DNA from: Candidatus Moraniibacteriota bacterium
Lineage (GTDB): Bacteria; Patescibacteriota; Minisyncoccia; Moranbacterales; UBA1568
Assembly: GCA_963743885.1 (NCBI GenBank)
Contig: CAVURJ010000001.1
Location: forward strand, 140,949 to 204,948
Direction of reading: 5' to 3'
DNA: 64,000 bases
Position 1 is the stretch's first letter; each line of letters opens with the position of its first letter. Shown here piece after piece: positions 9,161 to 52,197 of the stretch. The notes beneath the pieces were generated by a model. The model ran no database searches. It worked only from the letters and a program-made list of their open reading frames with translations, and was not told where the DNA came from. A program made the position numbers and the translations under genes.

Positions 9161-10174
9161 CTAGACCAGCTTGTCCTGGTGGTTCTCGGGGACATCGAGG
9201 CCGAGGTGCTGGTAGGCTTCCGGTGTGACGACGCGGCCGCGCGGGGTGCGGGCGAGGAAGCCGAGCTGGATGAGGTACGGCTCGTAGACGTCCTCGATCG
9301 TCTGGATCTCTTCACCGGCGACAGCGGCAATCGCCTGGATGCCAGCCGGTCCTCCGCGGAATTTCTTCATGATGCTTTCAAGGATATGCCTATCAGTCGG
9401 TTCGAGGCCGAGGCGGTCGATCTCATAGAGCGCGAGCGCTTCGCGAGCCGTCTCTTCATTGATGATGGCGATGTCCTTGATCTCCGCGTAGTCGCGGACG
9501 CGTTTGAGGATTCTATTGGCGACGCGCGGTGTCTGGCGGCTAGAATGAGCGATCGCGCTCGCTCCGGATGGGTCGATGCCGATGCCCAGGATGCGGGCGG
9601 AACGAGTGACGATCCTCTCGATTTCTTCTGGCGTGTAGAATTCGAGCCGGTGAGTGGAGCCGAAGCGGTTGCGGAGCGGGTTGGAGAGCGATCCGAGTCG
9701 GGTTGTGGCGCCGATTAGAGTGAAATGGGGCAGATCGAGCTGGATAGTGCGCGCGGCCGGGCCCTTTCCGATGATGATATCGAGCTTGTAGTCCTCCATG
9801 GCTGGGTAGAGGACCTCCTCAATCTGCTTGTTGAGGCGGTGGATCTCATCGATGAAGAGGACGTCACCGTCGTCGAGATTGGTGAGGATGGACCCGAGGT
9901 CTCCGACACGCTCGATGGCGGGGCCTGAGGTGACCTTGATGCTCACGCCCATCTCTTTAGCGATGATATTAGCGAGCGTGGTCTTACCGAGGCCAGCCGG
10001 CCCGTAGAGGAGGACATGATCAATGCTTTCCTCGCGCTTCTTGGCGGCGCGAATCACGATATCGAGGTTGCGCTTGATCTTTTCTTGGCCGACATAGTCG
10101 GTGAAGCACTGTGGCCGGAGCGTGATATCGAGCGTCTGCTCATCGAGTGGCGCTCCTTCGGCTGAATTTATCAT
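9161..10174 (-). CDS. ruvB: Holliday junction branch migration helicase RuvB
   Basis: [17 protein letters not shown] Walker A, RuvB-type AAA+ fold, 337 aa. Confidence 0.92.
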
Positions 10175-10403
10175 ACTAGTGGCTTGAATAAGGGAAGAAA
10201 TACTATGGCAGTCATCTTATTTTACCACCTCTTGACCCCGGTTACAAATTCAGAGAAAGATGTTTGTAATCGGGTATTTGAAGGCGAAGCCGTCTATCGG
10301 CTCAGCTGGGAGAATGTCTGGATTTCGGCCTAATTTGTAACGGGGTTGACAAAAAAACAAAGCCATGCTATCATCCAAAGTCGCTTTACAAAGAATTTAT
10401 GTT

Positions 10404-10446
10404 CCCGGCCCGCCCGCAACGCTTCGCGTAGCGATGCGGGCGGGGC
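10404..10446. repeat. GC-rich palindromic element copy A (CCCGCCCG-loop-GCGGGCGGG family)
   Basis: cccgcccgcaacgcttcgcgtagcgatgcgggcggg; homologous copies at 15398, 18216, 33190, 35541, 52163. Confidence 0.7.
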
Positions 10447-10636
10447 TGTCTCACATGTAGACAATTGGGGATTACTATCTTTTGTCCTCAATCATGGGGA
10501 TGGGCGGGCCTTCGGGTTCCCTAGTCAAGATCGGGTAGGGTGGTTCCGGCTGCGCTACACCTCGACACCATTCCTTTTCTCGGGCTCCTATGTCTGGGAT
10601 TTGTCTACAGCTGAGACAGTGACATAAGCGAACAAA

Positions 10637-10672
10637 AAGAGGCCCATCCGCCAGCCGGCGGAGGGCCTCTTT
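10637..10672. terminator. Bidirectional rho-independent terminator
   Basis: agaggccc-[ccgccagccggcgg]-gggcctct hairpin flanked by A/T runs; 3' of gspE-like gene. Confidence 0.6.
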
Positions 10673-10695
10673 TGCTTTGCCTGTGGAATGATTGG

Positions 10696-13600
10696 TCAGA
10701 GATTCGCGACGCGACGGACTTCGTCGAGTGACGTTTTGCCTTCGATGACCGAGAGTATGCCGTCCTGTGCGATGGTGATCATGCCGTTCTCGATGGCCTT
10801 CTCTTCAATCTCATGAGTGAGCGCTCCGCGGGCGATGAGGTCTTTGATGGTATTGTCGATAGGGATGGTTTCCGAAAGGACGAGCTGCCCCGCATGACCG
10901 GTTCCATTGCAATTCTGGCAACCGGCACCACTCCAGATTTTTAGTGCGTCCTTTGGTAGGGTATCAACGTGTTCCGGCGAGAGCGCAGAGAGGACTTTTG
11001 AGATGATGGCGTGTTCCTCATCGGTCGGTTTTCTCGGTTGTTTGCACTTCTCGCAGAGCCTACGGACGAGGCGCTGTGCGATGAGGAGACCACCGGCATT
11101 AGCGATATCATCACCGGAGATGCCCATTTTCATGAGGCGCGATATGGCTCCGGCAGCAGAATTGGCATGGAGTGTTGAGAGTACGAGGTGGCCGGTATTG
11201 GCGGCTTGTATAGCGATGCGCGCTGTATCATCGTCGCGGATTTCGCCTACCATGAGAACATCTGGGTTCTGACGGAGCAAGGCACTGAGAGCGGTTGAGA
11301 AAGTGTATCCTTCAGCTTCGTTTATCTGGGTCTGTAGAATGCCAGGCATCTGGTATTCGATCGGATCTTCGACGGTGATGATTTTCGTCTCTGGTTTATT
11401 AAGGAGTGCAAGCGTTCCGTAGAGCGTCGTTGTCTTTCCGGATCCTGTCGGTCCGGTATTGAGAATGATGCCGTTTGGAGCATGAATTGCGGAAAGAATC
11501 CTTTTCAAGTTTTGCGATCGGAGAGCGAGGTTTTCAAGGTTGAGCGCGGCATTTGATTGGTTCAGAAGGCGTATAACTGCGGTTTCGCCAAAACCTCCGA
11601 GTATGAGAGAAAGTCGAACATTGATTATTTTGTCCGGCGCGCCATCGGGTTGTTCAATAGCAATAGAGAAACGTTTATCGGTAATTCCGGCGCGCTCGCT
11701 TGTCTTGAGGCCCACTAGGTTCTTGATGTCATTGATAAAGCTCGGATATTCGTTGAGCGGGAAGCGTGCGATCGTTTGAAGCATGCCGTCTATGCGGAGC
11801 CTAATGGAAAAATCTTTGTCGGAGGGTTCGATATGGATGTCGCCAGCATGCATATGTATTGCCGCAGCGAAAACGATCTGTAATCTCGTTTTGGATTCTG
11901 AGTGCAAAACGTATTCCTCGAATACCTGGAAAGAAGAGAGGTGTCGCGCTGTTTCGGTGACGATATCGGATGGAATGAACGATGAGCGCGAAAGGTCGCT
12001 CGACATCAAATCGAGGTAGATATTTTTCAGCATATCAGATTGGTCGGTGACGCGGGAAATCTCCTCAAGTGTTGTGATTCCATCGAGCATCTTTAAGATG
12101 CCATCCTGAGTCATGGTGACCATGCCGTTTTCGAGAGCTGCACGAAAGAGCTCCTGTTCAGTTCCGAGATTTTCGATAATCTTGATGATATCCGGCGTCA
12201 TGGCGAAGACCTCAAAAATTCCGATGCGGCCTTTGTATCCCGTAAAATGACAATTTGGGCATCCAGATGCTTTCCAGAGAACCCGCACCTCTTTCGGAAG
12301 CACGATTTTTGCTTTGGGGGATATGATAGTGATGAGGCGGATGATGGAGTCGATAGTTCCTTTCGCTGGTTCGTATGATTGTTTGCATTGGTCGCAGAGT
12401 TTGCGGACGAGCCGTTGCGCGATAAGGACGTTGACTGAGGCAGCAAGGACCGAGGGCTTCACTCCGAGTTCGATAAATCTTGGGATGGCGCCAGGGGCAC
12501 TGTTGGCGTGGAGCGTCGACATGACGAGGTGGCCGGTGAGTGCGGCGTTGACAGCAATATCAGCCGTTTCGTCGTCTCGAATCTCGCCGATAAGAATGAT
12601 GTCCGGGTCTTGACGGACGATAGCTCGGAGCGCCGAAGCGAAAGTATAGGATTTGTCTTTTGAGACTTCAGTCTGTACGATGCCAGGAAGCGAATATTCG
12701 ATCGGATCTTCGACGGTGATGATCTTAGCCCCTGGCTGGTTGATGATATTGAGGAGAGTGTAGAGCGTCGTTGTCTTTCCGGATCCTGTCGGCCCGGTAT
12801 TGAGCACCATGCCGTTCGGCTTTTCAATCTGGCGGAGCACTTCCTCGCGGGCGAGCCCTCGCAGCCCGAGCGAGTCGATATCGACGATGACATCTTCGCC
12901 TGATAGAAGGCGCATATTTATGCTTTCCCCGTATTTTCCAGGGATGATGTTGACGCGGACATCGATGCGTTTTTGGTCGAGCGTGATGAAAAAGTGACCG
13001 TCTTGGGCTTTATCGCGGATATTGAGCCGCATTTTTCCGATCATTTTGATGCGGGAGATGAGTTGCCGGTAGACCGCCTGAGAAAGCGACCCGATATTTT
13101 GGAGTACGCCATCGACGCGATAACGGAGGCGTACAGTATCTTCTTCTGGCTCGAGGTGGATATCGCTTGCGTCGAGCTTTCTGGCGCCAGCAAGAACGAC
13201 CTCGATGGAATGCGAAGTGGTTGATGGCCGATTTTCTTTCAGGCTGATGAGTTCACCGAAATCCTTTTCGAATTGCTCAAGGTCATTGCCTTTGAGCGAG
13301 ACGCGGACGAGGTCAAGGCTATCGCTGACCGATTGTTTTGTATAAGCTTCCCAGGCGCTTTCAATGGATGGTTTTGAGACGACGTAGAGCTCTCGGCCGA
13401 ATCCTTTTTTCTCTACGAACGTATCGATATAGGAAAGCGCTTCTTGGTTTGCTGGGTCGGTAATCGCAAAGAGTGCCTGTAAGCCTTTCTTTTGGAAAAG
13501 GATAAAGCCGAGGCGTCGAGCGTCCGCCTCCGGGATAAGCAGGGCCTCTTCCGGTTCGACAGGAAAAAGACTGAGGTCTATATATGGGAGGCCGCATGAG

Positions 13601-15184: not shown

Positions 15185-15664
15185 ATGATGCAAAATATCT
15201 TTACCACGCATTCGGCAGAGGAAACCAGGGGGCTGGCGAAGGAGCTGGCGCGGGAAATAGCGCCAGGGACGCTCCTGTGTCTCCGTGGTGATCTTGGTGC
15301 GGGCAAGACGACTTTTACACAAGGATTGCTTGAAGGCCTGGGTGCGGCGCGGCCATATGTCAGCCCAACTTTCGTCATCATGAAGCAATACGAGCTACCT
15401 GCCCGAAACACTTCGTATAGCGATGTGGGCGGGCCTGTGCCGACCGCGACTGGTATTGAGTGTATCTATCACGCCGATGCCTATCGCGTTGAAGCGAAGG
15501 ACTTCGAGGGGCTCGGATTTGCCGAGTGGTGCGCCGATCAGAGAGGCATCGTTATCCTTGAGTGGCCGGAGCGCATCGAGGCTATCCTGCCAGAAAAAAG
15601 GGTCGAGATCTCGCTCCAATCGCTTTCGGAAAATGAACGGGAAATCACGATAGAAAAAAAGTAG
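15185..15664 (+). CDS. tsaE: tRNA threonylcarbamoyladenosine biosynthesis protein TsaE, carrying an in-frame ~16-aa insertion from a GC-rich palindromic element
   Basis: LRGDLGAGKTTFTQGL P-loop, SPTFVIMKQY...YHADAYRVE; extra segment ARNTSYSDVGGPVPTATG encoded by element copy B. Confidence 0.8.
   Translation: MMQNIFTTHSAEETRGLAKELAREIAPGTLLCLRGDLGAGKTTFTQGLLEGLGAARPYVSPTFVIMKQYELPARNTSYSDVGGPVPTATGIECIYHADAYRVEAKDFEGLGFAEWCADQRGIVILEWPERIEAILPEKRVEISLQSLSENEREITIEKK
15398..15436. repeat. GC-rich palindromic element copy B, in-frame within tsaE
   Basis: cctgcccgaaacacttcgtatagcgatgtgggcgggcc, ~80% identical to copy A. Confidence 0.65.
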
Positions 15665-15717: not shown

Positions 15718-18423
15718 ATGGAAAAGAAGCCGAAAATCCTGGTTTTATTGGATGGAAACGCGCTCATACATCGCGCGTATCATGCGTTGCCGCCGCTCAC
15801 GGATAAGGCGGGGCATCCGGTCAATGCGGTGTATGGGTTCGCCATGACGCTCCTCGCGGTGCTTGAGAAGTTCCATCCGGAATATATTGCGGCGTCTTTT
15901 GATCTTTCTGGCCCGACTTTCCGCGATGAGCTATACAAGGATTACAAAGCTACCCGGACGAAGGCGCCGGACGATCTATATGAGCAGATCCCGCGTGTGA
16001 AGGATGTGGTGCGCGCATTCAATATCCCAATCTATGAGAAGGAAGGGTACGAGGCGGATGATTGCGTGGGGACGATCGCACGGCAGGCAGAAAAAGAAGG
16101 TGTGCAGACGATTATCGTGACGGGGGACAATGATGCGCTTCAGTTGGTGACGCCGCTCGTCAACGTGTTTTCGATTCGCAAGGGCATCAAGGACCTCGTG
16201 CTCTATGATGAGGCGGCTGTGAGGGCGAAGTACGGCTTCAATCCGATGCAGCTCGTCGAATATAAGGGGTTGTGTGGGGATGCGTCGGACAATATCCCGG
16301 GCGTGAAGGGTATCGGCGCCAAGACAGCGACCGATCTCATCGCGGCGCACGGTACGCTCGAAGGCATCTATACGTCGCTTGAGACGCTCAAGCCAGCTGT
16401 GAAGGCCAAGCTTGAGGCGGACAAGGAGAATGCTTTCCTCTCGCGCACGCTTGGTACGATCGATACGTCGGCTCCGGTGACACTCGCGCTCACGGATGCA
16501 GTGACGCATGAGTATGACCGGGCGGCGGTCGTGGCGCTCTTTACTGAGCTTGGATTCTTCAGTTTGGTCAAAAGATTGCCGGGTGGCGAAGCCAAGAATC
16601 AAGAATCAAGAATCAAGAATCAAGAGGGGAAGAAGCCGAAAAAGACGAAAACGTTCAAGAATGCGGAAGAGCTTGAGGAGTGGCTTGAGGCGAACAAGGG
16701 GAAGGGTGTTGCGGTCTGGATCGAGAAGGGCGAGGCATCGCTCTTTGGCGGAGCTGGTATCGCAGAGGTGAGGCTTTCGATAGTGGAGGATGCGGAGGTG
16801 GTGGTTGTATGGAACAGCGAGACGAAGCCGGCTCTTAAGGGATTCTTCGAGGATGCGAAGCGCCCGAAGATTCTCTATGATTCGAAAGAAGCGATGCATC
16901 TTCTCGTGAATGAGTATATGGCGCTGGCTGGTGTGGCACGCGATGTGAAGCTCATCGCGTATCTCCTCGATGCCGGTGGTAATGTTGGTTTCGATGAACT
17001 ACTGCTCAAGGAGTTCGGTCTAGAGCATGCCGAAGCGAAGGCCGCTGCGCTCTACGCGCTCAATGCGCGGCTCGGCGAGCGGATCAAGGCAATTTCGGCG
17101 GAGCAGCCGGCGGGCCAGCCCGCAGGAGCTACGCCCACAGCGTTGCTGGCGGGAAAGTCGCTCCTTGATGTTTATGCGGATATCGAACTACCGCTCATCC
17201 CAGTGCTCTTCGAAGTAGAGGAGAATGGCATCTTTCTCAATACGGAAAAATTTAAGGTGCTGTCGGAGCAGCTCGCGGAGGAGCTCAAGACGCTCGAGCA
17301 GGATATCTATGCGTTCGCCGGTCGTGAGTTCAATATCAATTCTCCCAAGCAGCTCTCGGAGATTCTCTTTGAGGATCTTAAGATTCCGACGACGAATATC
17401 AAGAAGACGAAGACGGGTATCTCGACGGCTTCAGCTGAGCTTGCGAAGCTTGCTGAGTATCCGATCGTCGCGAAGATCGAGAGCTATCGCGAACTCTTCA
17501 AGCTGAAGACGACCTATCTTGATGCATTGCCGGCGCTCGTGGGAGCGGACGGGCGGTTGCACACGACCTTCCATCAGACGGTTGCGGCGACGGGGCGGCT
17601 CTCGTCATCTGATCCAAACTTGCAGAATATCCCCGCGAGGAACGCATGGAGCGAGCGTATCCGAGGAGCGTTCGAGGCGAAGCCTGGGTATCTCTTCGTC
17701 GGTGCGGACTATTCGCAGATCGAGCTTCGCGTCATGGCGCATCTTTCGGGAGATGAGTCGCTTGCCGAATCCTTCCGCAATGGTGAAGATGTCCATACGC
17801 GCACGGCTTCTGTGGTCTTCAAGGTGAAGCCGGAGGAGGTGACGGCCGATATGCGCCGGCAGGCCAAGGTCTTTAACTTCGGCATCATGTACGGTATGGG
17901 TAGCTTCGGCCTCGCACAGGCGGCTGGCATCAATCAGAAGACGGCAGCACAGTTTATCAAAGCATATTTCGAGAAATTCTCCGGCGTGACGCGATTTATT
18001 GAGGAGATGAAGGAAGGCGCGCGGAAGCATCACTTCGTTGAGACCGAGCTCGGACGTCGGCGCTATGTGCCGGAGATCGAGAGTGGCAATGTGCAGATAG
18101 CGCGTGCGGCCGAGCGCATGGCGATCAACATGCCGATTCAGGGATTGGCGGCTGATATCATGAAGCTCGCGATGCTCCGCGCGCAGAGAGTTGTCGATAG
18201 GTTTAATGATGCGAACCCGCCCCCGCCCGCATCCCGCTTGAAACGGGAAACGTGGCGGGCAAGGATGGTGCTCCAGGTGCATGATGAGCTCATCTTCGAA
18301 GTGAAGGCGGAGCTTGCGGAAACGTTCGCGAAGGAAGTGAAGGAAGCGATGGATGGAGCCTACCCGCTCCGCGTGCCGCTCATCGCTGCCGTCGAGATCG
18401 GGAAGAATTGGGGAGAGATCTAG
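15718..18423 (+). CDS. polA: DNA polymerase I
   Basis: N-terminus ILVLLDGNALIHRAYHA (5'-3' exo), Pol A motifs (RRQAKVFNFGIMYG, VHDELIFE); carries two in-frame repeat insertions (16594-16624 and 18216-18260). Confidence 0.9.
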   Translation: MEKKPKILVLLDGNALIHRAYHALPPLTDKAGHPVNAVYGFAMTLLAVLEKFHPEYIAASFDLSGPTFRDELYKDYKATRTKAPDDLYEQIPRVKDVVRAFNIPIYEKEGYEADDCVGTIARQAEKEGVQTIIVTGDNDALQLVTPLVNVFSIRKGIKDLVLYDEAAVRAKYGFNPMQLVEYKGLCGDASDNIPGVKGIGAKTATDLIAAHGTLEGIYTSLETLKPAVKAKLEADKENAFLSRTLGTIDTSAPVTLALTDAVTHEYDRAAVVALFTELGFFSLVKRLPGGEAKNQESRIKNQEGKKPKKTKTFKNAEELEEWLEANKGKGVAVWIEKGEASLFGGAGIAEVRLSIVEDAEVVVVWNSETKPALKGFFEDAKRPKILYDSKEAMHLLVNEYMALAGVARDVKLIAYLLDAGGNVGFDELLLKEFGLEHAEAKAAALYALNARLGERIKAISAEQPAGQPAGATPTALLAGKSLLDVYADIELPLIPVLFEVEENGIFLNTEKFKVLSEQLAEELKTLEQDIYAFAGREFNINSPKQLSEILFEDLKIPTTNIKKTKTGISTASAELAKLAEYPIVAKIESYRELFKLKTTYLDALPALVGADGRLHTTFHQTVAATGRLSSSDPNLQNIPARNAWSERIRGAFEAKPGYLFVGADYSQIELRVMAHLSGDESLAESFRNGEDVHTRTASVVFKVKPEEVTADMRRQAKVFNFGIMYGMGSFGLAQAAGINQKTAAQFIKAYFEKFSGVTRFIEEMKEGARKHHFVETELGRRRYVPEIESGNVQIARAAERMAINMPIQGLAADIMKLAMLRAQRVVDRFNDANPPPPASRLKRETWRARMVLQVHDELIFEVKAELAETFAKEVKEAMDGAYPLRVPLIAAVEIGKNWGEI
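16594..16624. repeat. (AAGAATC)4 heptanucleotide microsatellite in polA linker, encodes KNQESRIKNQE
   Basis: aagaatc x4 + aag; identical arrays at 26519 and 34554. Confidence 0.9.
18216..18260. repeat. GC-rich palindromic element copy within polA (in-frame)
   Basis: cccgcccccgcccgcatcccgcttgaaacgggaaacgtggcgggc; encodes ~NPPPPASRLKRETWRA inserted just before the VHDEL motif. Confidence 0.55.
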
Positions 18424-22618: not shown

Positions 22619-22658
22619 GCTTTAGCTCATCCTGGTTTTTTGGTTGGTATTTTTGTTT

Positions 22659-22694
22659 TCCTCCTCCACTGCCAAGGGGAGGGTAGGGAGGGGT
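22659..22694. repeat. Hairpin repeat, left flank of DUF559 gene
   Basis: cctcctccactgccaaggggagggtagggagggg; inverted/near-identical partner at 23053-23087. Confidence 0.6.
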
Positions 22695-22700
22695 TATGAT

Positions 22701-23051
22701 ATGTACCGGATATTCAATAAAAAAGATACGACTGAATTCCGAAGGAAGCTTCGGAAAGAATCTACACCGCAAGAGATAATCCTCTGGTCGCGATTGCGGA
22801 GAAAAGCTCTTGGATATAAATTCCGTCGCCAGCAGGCTATAGACGGATATATCGTTGATTTTTTCTGCTCAGAAAGGAATCTCATCATAGAATTGGATGG
22901 GTGGCAGCACAAGGAATCGGTGAAGCATGATGAAAAGCGGACGGAGTATCTCAATGGTCTCGGTATGAGGGTTTTGCGTTTTTGGAATAATGAAGTCAAT
23001 GATGACTTGGAAGGGGTGGTGTTGAAGATTGAGGAGAGCCTGAAGAATTGA
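22701..23051 (+). CDS. DUF559 (Vsr-like endonuclease fold) domain protein, low-GC
   Basis: ESTPQEIILWSRLR...GYKFRRQQAIDGYIVDFFC...LIIELDGWQH; ~43% GC. Confidence 0.65.
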   Translation: MYRIFNKKDTTEFRRKLRKESTPQEIILWSRLRRKALGYKFRRQQAIDGYIVDFFCSERNLIIELDGWQHKESVKHDEKRTEYLNGLGMRVLRFWNNEVNDDLEGVVLKIEESLKN

Positions 23052-33137: not shown

Positions 33138-33239
33138 TGTCATCCCGGGCTCGACCCGGGATCCAGAAATATGACTAAATAAAGAAGTCCTGGATTCCCG
33201 CCTGCGCCAGCCTCGACGTCTAGGCGGGCGGGAATGACA
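33138..33239. mobile_element. MITE-like ~100-bp element with terminal inverted repeats TGTCATCCCGG / CGGGAATGACA, containing GC-palindrome copy D
   Basis: tgtcatcccgggctcgacccgggatccagaaa ... cccgcctgcgccagcctcgacgtctaggcgggcgggaatgaca. Confidence 0.5.
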
Positions 33240-35003: not shown

Positions 35004-35519
35004 ATGGAAAGTATAAATAATGAAGGACAGGCCGCTCCGGCTCCAGAGACACCAGCCGCTGCGCCGGTCAACAAGGAGCAGATGAAGTCGGATGTGAAGG
35101 GTATGCTTGGCCAGCTTGAGGCATGGCTCGAGGGTGTGATGGTCAAGAAAGCTCCGTTTCAGATCCCGATGGGCGGCAAGAATTTCCTGGCGATGGTCGC
35201 TCCGTATCTCGTGATCATCGGCATTGTGCTCGCCATTCCGGCGACGCTCTTCGTGCTGGTAACTTCACCGATTCTCATATTGGGTGGTGGGGGCATGGCT
35301 ATTGTGAGCTTCCTGTTTTCCATTGCTGCACTCGTCATCGAGGCAATCGCGCTTCCAGGACTCTTCAAGCGCACCCAAGCGTCGTGGCGGTTGCTCTTCT
35401 ATGCGTCTGTCGTCAGTGTCCTCGGCAGCATCGTCAGCTTTCAGATCGTCAGCGCCCTTATCGGTGCTATCGTCGGCTGGTACATCATCTTCCAGGTCAA
35501 GGAAGTGTACAAGAACTGA
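35004..35519 (+). CDS. Hypothetical membrane protein (3-4 TM)
   Basis: 171-aa ORF with hydrophobic core; TATAAT at ~34872. Confidence 0.5.
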   Translation: MESINNEGQAAPAPETPAAAPVNKEQMKSDVKGMLGQLEAWLEGVMVKKAPFQIPMGGKNFLAMVAPYLVIIGIVLAIPATLFVLVTSPILILGGGGMAIVSFLFSIAALVIEAIALPGLFKRTQASWRLLFYASVVSVLGSIVSFQIVSALIGAIVGWYIIFQVKEVYKN

Positions 35520-35531
35520 CACTTTCCAAAA

Positions 35532-35622
35532 TGTCATCCCGGACTCCTGCCCGAATCGCTACGCGAAGCGTTGCGGGCGGGTGATCCGGGATCCAGAAAC
35601 GGGCCTTTAGCCCGTTTTTTGG
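35532..35622. repeat. TGTCATCCCGG-type element carrying GC-palindrome copy C, fused to a terminator hairpin
   Basis: tgtcatcccggactcctgcccgaatcgctacgcgaagcgttgcgggcgggtgatccgggatccagaaa + gggcctttagcccgtttttt. Confidence 0.6.
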
Positions 35623-38641: not shown

Positions 38642-38959
38642 ATGAAAAAATATTTTTCTTTCACCTTGGCGTTTATGATTGTTGTAGGTATTACTGGGTA
38701 CTATTTGTTTTTTGCAAAACCATCCGTAGCGCCGGTAGCGGCACCTGAGGGTGTGACCAATAATGACGGCCAGCCCGCAGCAACCACTCCTGCTCAGACC
38801 GGGCTCGCCAATCCTGCGTCGGTCAATTGTGTGAAGACCAAGGGTGGGACGCTTGAGATAGTTGATATGCTGGAGGGTCAGCAGGGCATATGCCATCTGC
38901 CGGACGGCACGACGTGCGAAGAATGGGCGCTCATGCGTGGCACGTGCGGTAGCAAATAG
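38642..38959 (+). CDS. DUF333-like small secreted protein
   Basis: Signal peptide; NPASVNCVKTKGGTLEI...CHLPDGTTCEEWALMRGTCG. Confidence 0.55.
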   Translation: MKKYFSFTLAFMIVVGITGYYLFFAKPSVAPVAAPEGVTNNDGQPAATTPAQTGLANPASVNCVKTKGGTLEIVDMLEGQQGICHLPDGTTCEEWALMRGTCGSK

Positions 38960-40935: not shown

Positions 40936-41141
40936 CATCAAGGTGTACCGAGGAGGATTTTTCGGAAATACCAACAAAAACCAGCTTCGAAGGCTCGAGG
41001 CTGGTTTTTTTGCACGCAAAATCTGGAGCCGAAGTATCTTTTGGGGCCGTATCGTGGTAGGATGCCTTACTTGGGAAGACGGAGAGGCCTTTGAAAACAC
41101 CGGAAGATAAAGAGCGATTCTTGCATAATATAGAGCGGAGT

Positions 41142-42687
41142 ATGGCGAAGAATCATCACGCCGCATCCGAATGGCATATCGCGCACATCGCGTCAGAAGT
41201 GGATCCGTTTTCGAAAACGGGCGGACTGGCGAGCGTGCTCGGTTCTTTGCCGCGTGCGCAGCAGGTGCTCGGGACGGATACGATCATCATCACGCCGTAT
41301 TATGGTAAACATATCGATGCCGAGGCGTATGGGCTCGAGAGCATCGGTAAGTCGGAGAGGATAGAGGTGGAGCCAGGAGTCTTCGAGCGAGTCGCTTTCC
41401 GCAAAGGATTTCTCGGGGACGAGAAGATTCCAGTGTATTTTATAGAGAACAAAAAGTTTTTCGGATCACGCAAGAAATTTTACGGAGCGGACAATGATAA
41501 CGCGCGGTTTCTCTTTTTTGATAGGGCCGCGCTTTTTCTTTTGAAAAAGATCGATTTTAGGCCAACGGTCATTCACTGTCATGATTGGCATGCTGGTCTC
41601 GTGCCTTTTCTCCTCAAGACCCGGTATGCGGAGGATTCATTTTTCGAGCAAGACAGCGACGCTCTTTACGATTCACAATCTGTCTTTCCAGCTCGGTCAT
41701 GATTGGCGCGATATTCCGGAGAGAGAACATGATGACGGATATTCCGAGTTGCCTCTGGTTTCGGATACACGAAGGATAGAGCGGCTCAACTTTGCGAAGC
41801 GAGCCATCCTTTTCGCCGACGCCATCAATACCGTCTCGGAGACGTATCGTGAGGAGATACTGACCAAAGCTTTCGGGGAGGAATTGCATCGCCTACTCAA
41901 GGAGCGCAAACGCAGCGTTTTCGGTATCGTCAACGGCATTGATTATCATGATTTCAATCCACTCACGGACCCAGGTCTCGTGCGGCACTACAGCAATCGG
42001 TCCGTTCAGCTCCGCAAGTACAACAGGAAAGCGCTGCAGAGGCGCTATGGGTTGGCCGAGGATGCGTATGCTCCGATCCTTTGTACGACGTCTCGTATTA
42101 GCGAGCAGAAGGGGTTCAAACTCATACTGCAGGTCATCCGTCCGGTGCTCGAGCGGGGCGCACAGTTCATCATCATGGGCGACGGCGATGGGCAGACCAT
42201 CCGCGCACTTCAGGTGCTCGAGCGGGAGTTTCCTGGGCAGTTTGTCTATACGCCTTTTGATCACGAGCAAGAGACGCTGCTGTATGCCGGAGCGGAGATA
42301 TTCCTCCTGCCTTCGCGTTTCGAGCCGTGCGGCATCAACCAGATGATTGCGCTTCGTTATGGCTGCATCCCTATCGTCCGTCATATCGGCGGCCTGGCGG
42401 ATACTATCGAGGACTACGATCCTCGGACCAAGACTGGCAACGGATTTGTCTTCAAACAATACGACTCGACGAGTCTGTTTATCGCTATCATCCGGGCGCT
42501 CGAAAATTTCAAGCATGCGCGTGCCTGGCGTGATCTGTGCGTTATGGGTCTTAATGAGGCACATTCATGGAAGATACCGGCTCAGAAATATATCGACCTC
42601 TACGGCGTGACGCTTCGCCTCAAGCAGCGTCATGGGCGTGAGTGGTCGAGGCGCTCTGTCGCATCGCAGCATCCATCACCCGTATGA
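41142..42687 (+). pseudogene. glgA: Glycogen synthase GlgA interrupted by a frameshift in a T5 run (41640-41644)
   Basis: ORF1 ...EVDPFSKTGGLASVLGSLP...HCHDWHAGLVPFLLK; ORF2 (+1 frame) KTATLFTIHNL... through C-terminus; removing one T joins LK..SSKTATLFTIHNL. Confidence 0.6.
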
Positions 42688-52162: not shown

Positions 52163-52197
52163 CCCGCCCGAAGCGTACCGCTCCGGTGCGGGCGGGT
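52163..52197. repeat. GC-rich palindromic element copy E
   Basis: ccccgcccgaagcgtaccgctccggtgcgggcggg. Confidence 0.65.

Follow-up and report, generated by a model that had tools for sequence, protein, structure and literature searches.

A decayed copy of a 36 bp palindromic repeat inserted in frame in tsaE of a Candidatus Moraniibacteriota bacterium, and the wider distribution of the repeat

How can an essential gene come to carry, in the middle of its reading frame, a piece of DNA resembling a repeat that also lies between genes? The question is raised by a 64,000 nt stretch of a contig from a Candidatus Moraniibacteriota bacterium, referred to below as the window, in which the essential tRNA-modification gene tsaE is extended between two of its conserved blocks. 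A reading made from the letters of this DNA, without database searches (the sequence-only reading), had proposed that a GC-rich palindromic element is inserted there in frame, much as the Rickettsia palindromic elements (RPEs) colonise coding sequences, and the comparisons described here bear out this central claim while correcting the extent of the element. The two features concerned are the following.

15185 to 15664, + strand: tsaE, an intact ORF of 159 aa, with an insert in the turn that joins strands 66-70 and 93-98
15398 to 15433, + strand: decayed copy of a 36 bp palindrome, in frame in tsaE, encoding PARNTSYSDVGG

The ORF at 15185-15664 matches the TsaE family of Pfam, PF02367, with E=9e-34 and 116.6 bits against a cut-off of 26.6, and TsaE structures in the PDB also match it, down to E=7.5e-26. 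It retains the Walker A (GxxGxGKT), SPTF and HxDxYR motifs, which are invariant in an alignment of the best 120 of 6,053 homologues. The profile match places 146 residues on 127 profile positions, which indicates an insertion of about 19 residues. Similarly, the distance from SPTF to HADAYR is 42 residues in the window protein and 29-31 in 102 of the 120 closest homologues, the consensus of the short loop being SPTFVIMKQYDLPxPSxTGIxRIYHADAYR. At the codon level the window gene reads CTA [CCT GCC CGA AAC ACT TCG TAT AGC GAT GTG GGC GGG] CCT GTG CCG ACC GCG ACT GGT, where relatives without the insert have CTC CCG GCG CCG TCG GCA ACT GGT at the same point. The inserted DNA at 15398-15433, CCTGCCCGAAACACTTCGTATAGCGATGTGGGCGGG, is exactly 36 bp long, sits between the Leu codon CTA and CCT GTG, and gives TsaE 12 additional residues; the sequence-only reading had made the unit 39 bp long and had counted VPTATG, which is ancestral loop, as part of the insert. 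Neither the other 119 of the best 120 of 6,053 TsaE homologues nor the TsaE proteins of solved structure contain the segment, as expected of a lineage-specific insert, and no distant TsaE was found to share it at the protein level without nucleotide likeness to the element. These comparisons support the lineage specificity of the insert, whose DNA is, as shown below, homologous to a palindromic repeat that occurs in dispersed copies. The neighbourhood of tsaE and polA is syntenic in relatives L002, L004, L005 and L007; the relatives are contigs of the candidate phyla radiation (CPR)/Parcubacteria type.

The position of the insert within the protein can be judged from both solved and predicted structures. 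At this point B. subtilis TsaE (5NP9) has only YNDGVLPLYH, and the solved structures of the B. subtilis and T. maritima proteins show a tight turn. In an AlphaFold2 model of the window protein, with a mean pLDDT of 90, residues 71-92 form a coil of pLDDT 63-68 flanked by strands 66-70 and 93-98. The insert is accordingly modelled as a 12-residue hydrophilic coil at the tip of a beta-hairpin, a placement that leaves the ATPase motifs intact. This turn probably lies at the far end of the hairpin from the nucleotide site, because SPTF starts the first strand and HxD closes the second.

The DNA at 15398-15433 represents, in decayed form, a 36 bp palindrome with sharp boundaries, CCCGCCCGCAACGCTTCGCGTAGCGATGCGGGCGGG, which is present elsewhere in the window, along with further members of the same family:

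10409 to 10444, + strand: canonical copy, CCCGCCCGCAACGCTTCGCGTAGCGATGCGGGCGGG; intergenic, 36/36 against the cross-phylum consensus, 66 bits
15694 to 18423, + strand: polA, 909 aa against 872 aa in relative L007, with two in-frame family inserts
17115 to 17153, - strand: decayed 39 bp family copy in polA, an in-frame 13 aa insert, AGQPAGATPTALL
18222 to 18263, - strand: family copy with an enlarged centre in polA, an in-frame 15 aa insert, ANPPPPASRLKRETW, just before the QVHDE motif
33197 to 33232, no strand assigned: 36 bp palindrome, a weak family member; intergenic, arms only, within one mismatch
35546 to 35581, - strand: near-canonical copy, 34/36 to the consensus, 60.5 bits
52163 to 52196, no strand assigned: 34 bp variant; intergenic, with the same 8 nt arms, CCCGCCCG/CGGGCGGG, and a different centre

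Compared without gaps with the copy at 10409-10444, the tsaE insert is identical at 30 of 36 positions, whereas the best score on either strand among 200 shuffles of the window, drawn from its dinucleotide model, was 25, with a mean of 22.1. Likewise, blastn-short aligned the insert with the element at 84% over 38 nt (E=0.009), and a covariance model (R1) constructed from 45 distinct element copies gave it 46.9 bits (E=4e-9), the tsaE copy being included in this training set. The boundaries of the insert, obtained independently from the protein alignment, are those of the repeat itself, and the tsaE copy retains the 36 bp length and the polarity of the element. It is read in the commonest coding frame of the element, and its centre, ACNCTTCGNNTAGCGAT, is common to copies in other phyla. 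A variant found at locus L123, CCTGCCCGAAACGCTTCGCGTAGCGATGCGGGCGGG, is identical to the inferred ancestor of the tsaE insert, and the four differences between this variant and the tsaE copy are all CpG transitions; relative to the consensus there are six differences, five of which are CpG transitions. With 16 of the 36 positions lying in CpG, this bias has p ~0.06, and methylation is not claimed.

Of the two intergenic copies named in the sequence-only reading, the one placed at 10404 is a perfect consensus copy that in fact occupies 10409-10444, with ruvB on one side and the gene for a T2SSE ATPase on the other, and the one at 52163 has only the arms in common with the element, its centre being a different one; it scores 26.7 bits (E=4e-4) with the covariance model and has a T2SSF gene and a pilin-like ORF as neighbours. 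Missed altogether were the copy at 35546-35581, downstream of ORF 35004-35519 and enclosed by an outer palindrome, ATCCCGGA..TCCGGGAT, and both of the copies in polA. In the alignment, the insert at 17115-17153 is missing from polA of L007 and L004, and each of its arms is at most one mismatch from CCCGCCCG/CGGGCGGG; it is assigned to the family mainly because of this indel and these arms, its covariance score being weak (11.6 bits, E=2). The insert at 18222-18263 is missing from polA of L007 and scores 24.7 bits (E=0.001), while the palindrome at 33197-33232 reaches 14.1 bits (E=0.46). Pairs of arms with at most two mismatches occur at seven loci in the window, two of them within polA, against 0.7 in shuffles. 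Folded as single-stranded DNA, the intergenic copies give -21.3 kcal/mol (10409-10444, z=-4.7), -20.6 kcal/mol (35546-35581) and -13.7 kcal/mol (52163-52196), and the three coding copies -9.8 kcal/mol (tsaE), -10.9 kcal/mol and -13.8 kcal/mol (18222-18263).

The element consists of a 10 bp GC stem, a conserved A.A mismatch, a 4 bp inner stem, CGCT/AGCG, and a TCGCGT loop, making 14 base pairs in 36 bp and ending exactly at the base of the stem; because the mismatch is conserved and the loop asymmetric, the element has polarity. A scan of one genome per species, 185,579 species in all, with the pattern CCCGNNNCGCTWCGCGWAGCGNNNCGGG returned at least 119 stretches in at least 77 assemblies, where by our own estimate about 0.3 matches would be expected by chance. 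The consensus of 119 copies with unique flanks among the matches listed, oriented by their loop, is CC[C/T]GCCCGCAACGCTTCGCGTAGCGA[T/G]GCGGGCGGG; each of its 36 positions is conserved, and the consensus base is present in 72% and 81% of copies at the C/T and T/G sites respectively, and in at least 87% at the other pattern-free positions; in the same 119 copies, conservation falls to background at the first base beyond the 36 bp. Among the matches listed, the CPR hosts include Moranii-, Davies-, Giovannoni-, Jorgensen-, Falkow-, Collier-, Nealson-, Buchanan-, Nomura-, Magasanik- and Saccharibacteria, as well as others, and the hosts outside the CPR comprise many Verrucomicrobiota (including a 5 Mb contig), Acidobacteriota, Methylomirabilis (Methylomirabilota) and Margulisiibacteriota, along with MAGs labelled Gammaproteobacteria and Bdellovibrionales. 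Copies occur both between and inside genes, with flanks that are unrelated from copy to copy, and 13 more, less perfect copies lie within the same fetched loci. Among the matches listed, some assemblies have diagnostic variants in every one of their copies (5/5 in CAYHPU, 6/6 in CAVWMS and 4/4 in DASUWQ), as amplification from a lineage-specific master copy would give.

Several known kinds of structured sequence were considered as identities for the element and rejected. Searched against Rfam, the whole window yielded only a tRNA-Ser at the gathering threshold, and an E-value scan of 10150-10720 gave no credible family; on these scans the canonical copy does not belong to any known RNA, nor is a neighbouring tmRNA gene supported. 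CRISPR repeats were dismissed on the grounds that the copies are single and dispersed, without arrays, and integron attC sites on the absence of GTTRRRY from the consensus and the occurrence of single, dispersed copies, while a protelomerase site was rejected on architecture.

The effect of the element on reading frames follows from its length and composition. It is 36 bp, or 3 x 12, long, and five of its six frames are open, TAG occurring in one only, so that an insertion always leaves the frame of an ORF unchanged and seldom cuts the protein short. In loci with a GC content below 0.55, 28 of the 86 copies among the matches listed are inside ORFs of at least 200 aa, counted where at least 40 aa lie on each side of the copy. 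The frame encoding PARNASRSDAGG is favoured, accounting for 13 of these 28 coding copies; PPASLREALRAG is encoded by six, PARIATRSVAGG by three, and PPATLRVAMRAG and RPHRYAKRCGRG by two each, with two further copies of mixed centre having no orientation assigned, and the TAG-containing frame is used by none of the 28 among the matches listed. Host genes confirmed with Pfam encode UvrA, LeuRS (in the editing domain), UvrB, RecJ, RecG, PNPase, a MiaB-like radical-SAM enzyme and a VirD4-like ATPase, the Pfam domains either flanking the insert on both sides or spanning it, and exact-core copies are present inside uvrA, uvrB, leuS, recJ, recG, pnp and the MiaB-like gene of other genomes. The proposal that coding sequences are colonised with their frame kept is thus upheld by these genes as well as by the two copies in polA. 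Being 36 bp long with open frames, the element is almost harmless to reading frames, while being shared nearly unchanged across phyla, and its copies provide a catalogue, drawn up by nature, of the places where conserved proteins tolerate an insertion.

The loop of TsaE is one such site, and it has been struck independently by the element family in at least two other lineages. The tsaE gene of L006 (P0049) contains a 42 bp family copy whose arms are identical and whose centre differs (R1 E=1.6e-4); its reading frame is displaced by 1 nt and it lies 4 nt upstream of the window's site, so the insertion is independent of that in the window. L138, the TsaE of which is 38% identical to that of the window, has a 36 bp family copy, PARNATQSVAGG, in the same loop (E=1e-3), and in L130 (P0059) the loop holds a decayed family copy in the opposite orientation. 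Other sequences also accumulate here: one or two copies of an unrelated 21 nt hairpin (CTGCCTASACGGCAGRCAGGC, peptide PxRQxGL) lie at the same point in 15 of the 120 close homologues; hairpins unrelated to the element are found in the loop in L001, L004, L005, L131, L133 and L199, of which the last two are more distant tsaE genes, L199 having a 19 bp stem and L133 another hairpin; and simple tandem repeats are found in L135, L136 and L198. This recurrence probably reflects, in the main, survivorship at the one permissive site of a compact protein, to which the CTGCC/CCTG microhomology at the Leu-Pro codons may contribute.

Taking these observations jointly, the tsaE insert is an old, decaying copy of the 36 bp stem-loop, and it is likely that this repeat is selfish and mobilised in trans, the copy having survived in a permissive loop. 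The repeat would be non-coding selfish DNA multiplying within genomes and spread between phyla, and selection would retain only those insertions in permissive surface loops, hence the same TsaE loop holding independent insertions in several lineages. Once inserted in tsaE, the hairpin would no longer have been maintained, and would have eroded, mostly through CpG transitions. Mobilisation in trans might be performed by an enzyme that recognises the single strand once folded, as do HUH/Y1 transposases, for example RAYTs and the TnpA of IS200/IS605. The weak scores of the window copies at 17115 and 33197 count against this reading, as does the near-identity across phyla of a selfish element of 36 bp, which drift alone hardly accounts for, and no source of such an enzyme is apparent near the element. 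Pfam detected no transposase or Y1 domain in the roughly 60 ORFs of the window, which covers 64 kb of a 652 kb contig, and no protein family recurs beside the copies in 119 loci of 8 kb among the matches listed, all-against-all clustering of the 2,375 ORFs of these loci giving only housekeeping clusters, e.g. SmpB, LeuRS and EF-G. The 700 bp interval between two inverted copies in L017 likewise has no transposase-like ORF. Insertion of the IS200/IS605 type predicts a conserved target tetranucleotide, and its absence counts against that route: there is none in the 119 copies among the matches listed, the four positions on each side being unconserved. Nor is there a fixed target-site duplication, adjacent repeats of 3-5 bp being at chance level in copies among the matches listed. 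Direct repeats of 7-11 nt, by contrast with the null of 1.2%, flank 12% of these copies, two being perfect 8 bp repeats that abut both ends of the element; this excess fits neither a simple mechanism without duplication nor one with a fixed duplication, and keeps templated insertion or uptake alive.

According to such a scheme, the element would not have been transposed into tsaE; it would have arrived either by templated repair or copy-choice, a polymerase or break-repair intermediate at the tsaE loop jumping by way of a short microhomology to another hairpin copy and back again, or by ligation into a gap of a nuclease-resistant hairpin oligonucleotide taken up from outside the cell. Several junctions have the appearance this would produce: the window element and its right flank both start CCTG, the junctions of L006 have YTGCC in common, CTGCC(T) flanks the 21 nt hairpins of L001, L004, L005 and L131, and a 12 nt repeat lies on either side of the copy in L138, in addition to the tenfold excess of flanking direct repeats of variable length in copies among the matches listed. 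The lack of a transposase in the window ORFs or beside the copies is also consistent with it, as is the coincidence of the end of the element with the stem base, at which an exonuclease trimming a folded strand would come to a stop, and among the genes of the window are those for components of a type IV pilus and T2SS, such as competent CPR bacteria typically have. However, 88% of copies among the matches listed have no flanking repeat of at least 7 nt, there is no general microhomology to the ends of the element in these copies, and the A.A mismatch and loop polarity show faithful, full-length copying, which is required of any mechanism; we consider arrival by these routes unlikely. The 12-residue loop could instead be an adaptive extension of TsaE, for instance one contacting TsaD/TsaB or another partner, its likeness to the repeat being secondary. 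The intact ORF with all catalytic motifs, and the recurrent extension of this loop in related TsaE proteins, are in keeping with such a role, but the segment is found in one genome only among the best 120 of 6,053 homologues, the peptide PARNASRSDAGG recurs at unrelated positions of unrelated proteins, other lineages have different peptides at the site produced by different frames of the same DNA element, and the model predicts a low-confidence coil, making this account very improbable.

Extremely improbable is that the likeness arose by chance, the loop having grown by local slippage or duplication of its GC-rich codons. The loop is indeed an indel hot spot, as the simple tandem repeats in L135, L136 and L198 attest, but chance resemblance was tested and rejected on the shuffle scores (30/36 against a maximum of 25, n=200), the exact coincidence of the 36 bp boundaries, the occurrence of the centre ACNCTTCGNNTAGCGAT in copies of other phyla and the identity of the L123 variant to the insert's inferred ancestor. 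An artefact of sequencing or assembly, in the form of a chimeric join or an adapter-like hairpin, has to be considered for a metagenome-derived contig, as hairpins can trouble assembly; it is scarcely conceivable for an insert that is in frame and six substitutions from the consensus, belonging to a repeat that many laboratories, using many technologies, have assembled with unique flanks, a 5 Mb long-read contig being one example; none of 72,556 plasmids or 50,697 phage records contains this repeat, which indicates that it is not laboratory sequence. With selfish mobilisation in trans as the preferred reading, the further claim that the insert represents a minimal 36 bp mobile DNA not described before, compatible with coding, near-identical across phyla, and amplifying and colonising essential genes without a linked transposase, is a tentative one, about which we are more doubtful than confident. 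If it is true, either a widely shared host enzyme copies the hairpin or the hairpin itself spreads horizontally.

Intragenic palindromic repeats are already known, and the element is a variant of them that was not found in the literature searched. RPEs, as relayed by two later papers, are about 100-150 bp long and occur only in Rickettsia, where ten families are distinguished; 44 of their insertions in R. conorii are in frame (Ogata et al. 2000, via PMC10969869 and PMC3733652). The parallel with RPEs that was drawn in the sequence-only reading holds for behaviour: both are palindromes that occur intergenically and in frame at tolerated positions of functional housekeeping genes, here tsaE and, twice, polA, and elsewhere uvrA, uvrB, leuS, recJ, recG and pnp, with no linked transposase known. 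It does not extend to family membership, as the element has a length of 36 bp, shows no sequence relationship to RPEs and extends beyond a single genus, being near-identical across several phyla with hosts in the CPR, Verrucomicrobiota and others. Closer in size are the GTAG/CGTC REPs (Di Nocera et al. 2013, PMC3733652), stem-loops of 20-40 bp with stems of 5-13 bp, the defining mark of which is a GTAG or CGTC tetranucleotide left unpaired at one end. A minority of them are inside ORFs, conspicuously often tRNA synthetase genes or uvrA, uvrB, polA and recB; Opitutus, Rickettsia and Xanthomonas are among the bacteria concerned. The element resembles these in being a palindromic unit of 20-40 bp, in the kind of genes it enters and in its occurrence in Verrucomicrobia, but it has no terminal tag, its flanks being random and GTAG occurring only inside the loop. 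Its peptides differ from those of the Opitutus terrae REPs, VGPALAAG and GTGVPPV, and are not in the tables of that paper, including the supplementary ones (PMC3733652).

With REPIN/RAYT and IS200/IS605 systems the element shares a unit of mobility defined by a hairpin, the lack of MITE-type terminal inverted repeats and, mostly, of target duplication, but there is no RAYT/Y1 gene in the window or beside copies, no conserved flanking tetranucleotide and no REP doublets. The GC clusters of yeast mitochondria are GC-rich palindromes of about 30-60 bp that proliferate and are found, for example, in frame in var1; no transposase is known for them, and they are not known to be shared between phyla. 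They resemble the element as GC-rich palindromes placed in frame in a protein gene, although they are organellar. MITEs such as Correia/NEMIS, ERIC, RUP and BOX are likewise small, non-autonomous repeats occasionally forming in-frame fusions with ORFs, but they are 70-300 bp long with terminal inverted repeats and fixed target duplications, whereas the element is 36 bp long without a fixed duplication. Whether by sequence, by encoded peptides or by topic, no description of the element was found in the full-text literature searched, the coverage of which is incomplete.

In-frame colonisation by palindromes has so far been documented mainly for Rickettsia and for the tagged REPs of Proteobacteria and Opitutus. 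The same process is now seen in the reduced genomes of the CPR, in the essential genes tsaE, polA, uvrA, uvrB and leuS, where the element gives rise to loops peculiar to single lineages, which can mislead the alignment and annotation of CPR proteins. As the unit is small and sharply defined, the movement of REP-like elements without a transposase becomes a directly testable question. Not found in the plasmid and phage records, the element is also nearly absent from the viral contigs of IMG/VR, with three matches, one of them to a different variant.

Coding sequences within the window host members of this palindrome family beyond tsaE. DNA polymerase I (polA) contains two more in-frame inserts, of 13 aa (17115-17153) and 15 aa (18222-18263), both encoded by decayed copies of the palindrome, the longer of which directly precedes the catalytic QVHDE motif. 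A further decayed copy is possible within a DUF333 ORF, where the score from the covariance model, built from 45 distinct copies of the 36-bp element, is not significant:

38770-38807, decayed candidate in the DUF333 ORF (12.5 bits, E = 1.2)

The surface loop of TsaE also harbours a different hairpin repeat, 21 nt in length (CTGCCTA(C/G)ACGGCAG(A/G)CAGGC) and encoding PxRQxGL, at loci L001, L004, L005 and L131 from other genomes; of the 120 closest homologues, 15 carry this repeat at the same position, singly or as a tandem pair. Immediately 5' of the tsaE start, the segment 15153-15180 contains another hairpin-repeat motif, GTCATTCTGAGCGAAGCGAAGAATCTC, which includes a GCGAAGC mini-hairpin core; the loop of the 36-mer has this core too, on its minus strand.

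At 35535-35595, a second palindrome, ATCCCGGA..TCCGGGAT, encloses the 36-mer copy at 35546, suggesting that this copy entered another hairpin repeat at its loop. Direct repeats of 7-12 nt, in the geometry of a target duplication, flank some copies of the family (the Verrucomicrobiota loci L032, L059, L060, L069 and L082, and L138); most copies of the 36-mer are without them.

Some copies lie at tmRNA or tRNA genes. In four genomes the 36-mer lies directly against the tmRNA gene at its 5' end, with an overlap of 2-3 nt; at L012 it is found alongside a tRNA gene:

L018 3479-3514, 36-mer at tmRNA 5' end
L031 7574-7609, 36-mer at tmRNA 5' end
L109 3438-3473, 36-mer at tmRNA 5' end
L124 7195-7230, 36-mer at tmRNA 5' end
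L012 1270-1700, tRNA-Val, small ORF and duplicated tRNA 3' part with 36-mer

At L012, tRNA-Val is followed by the small ORF, judged by eye to be GIY-YIG-like, and then by the second copy of the tRNA 3' part, with the 36-mer sitting in the T-arm of this duplicate; the arrangement resembles an integrated element within which a second insertion is nested. The sequence 3' of the 36-mer, GGGGGTTCGA(A/C)CCC, is common to L012, L015 and L116; in the latter two, this flank and an upstream tRNA-Val were the only parts of the arrangement observed.

The canonical intergenic copy lies in a region upstream of ruvB that matched no family in Rfam and may represent a previously undescribed structured RNA:

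10346-10690, promoter-like sequence, canonical 36-mer (+) and downstream structure

The 36-mer is here preceded by a promoter-like TTGACA-17-TATCAT and followed by approximately 175 nt closed by a long-range helix, in which 10447-10465 pairs with 10602-10620, and then by a terminator hairpin at 10636-10672.

Two other loci in the window were noted:

41091-42687, glycogen/starch synthase, split into two overlapping ORFs
22644-23051, DUF559 ORF (Vsr-like endonuclease fold)

The synthase ORFs match positions 1-157 and 154-239 of the Glyco_transf_5 profile, and the split is a frameshift or sequencing error near 41640, where no hairpin repeat is associated with the break. Apart from the DUF559 ORF, no nuclease-like orphan gene was seen in the window.
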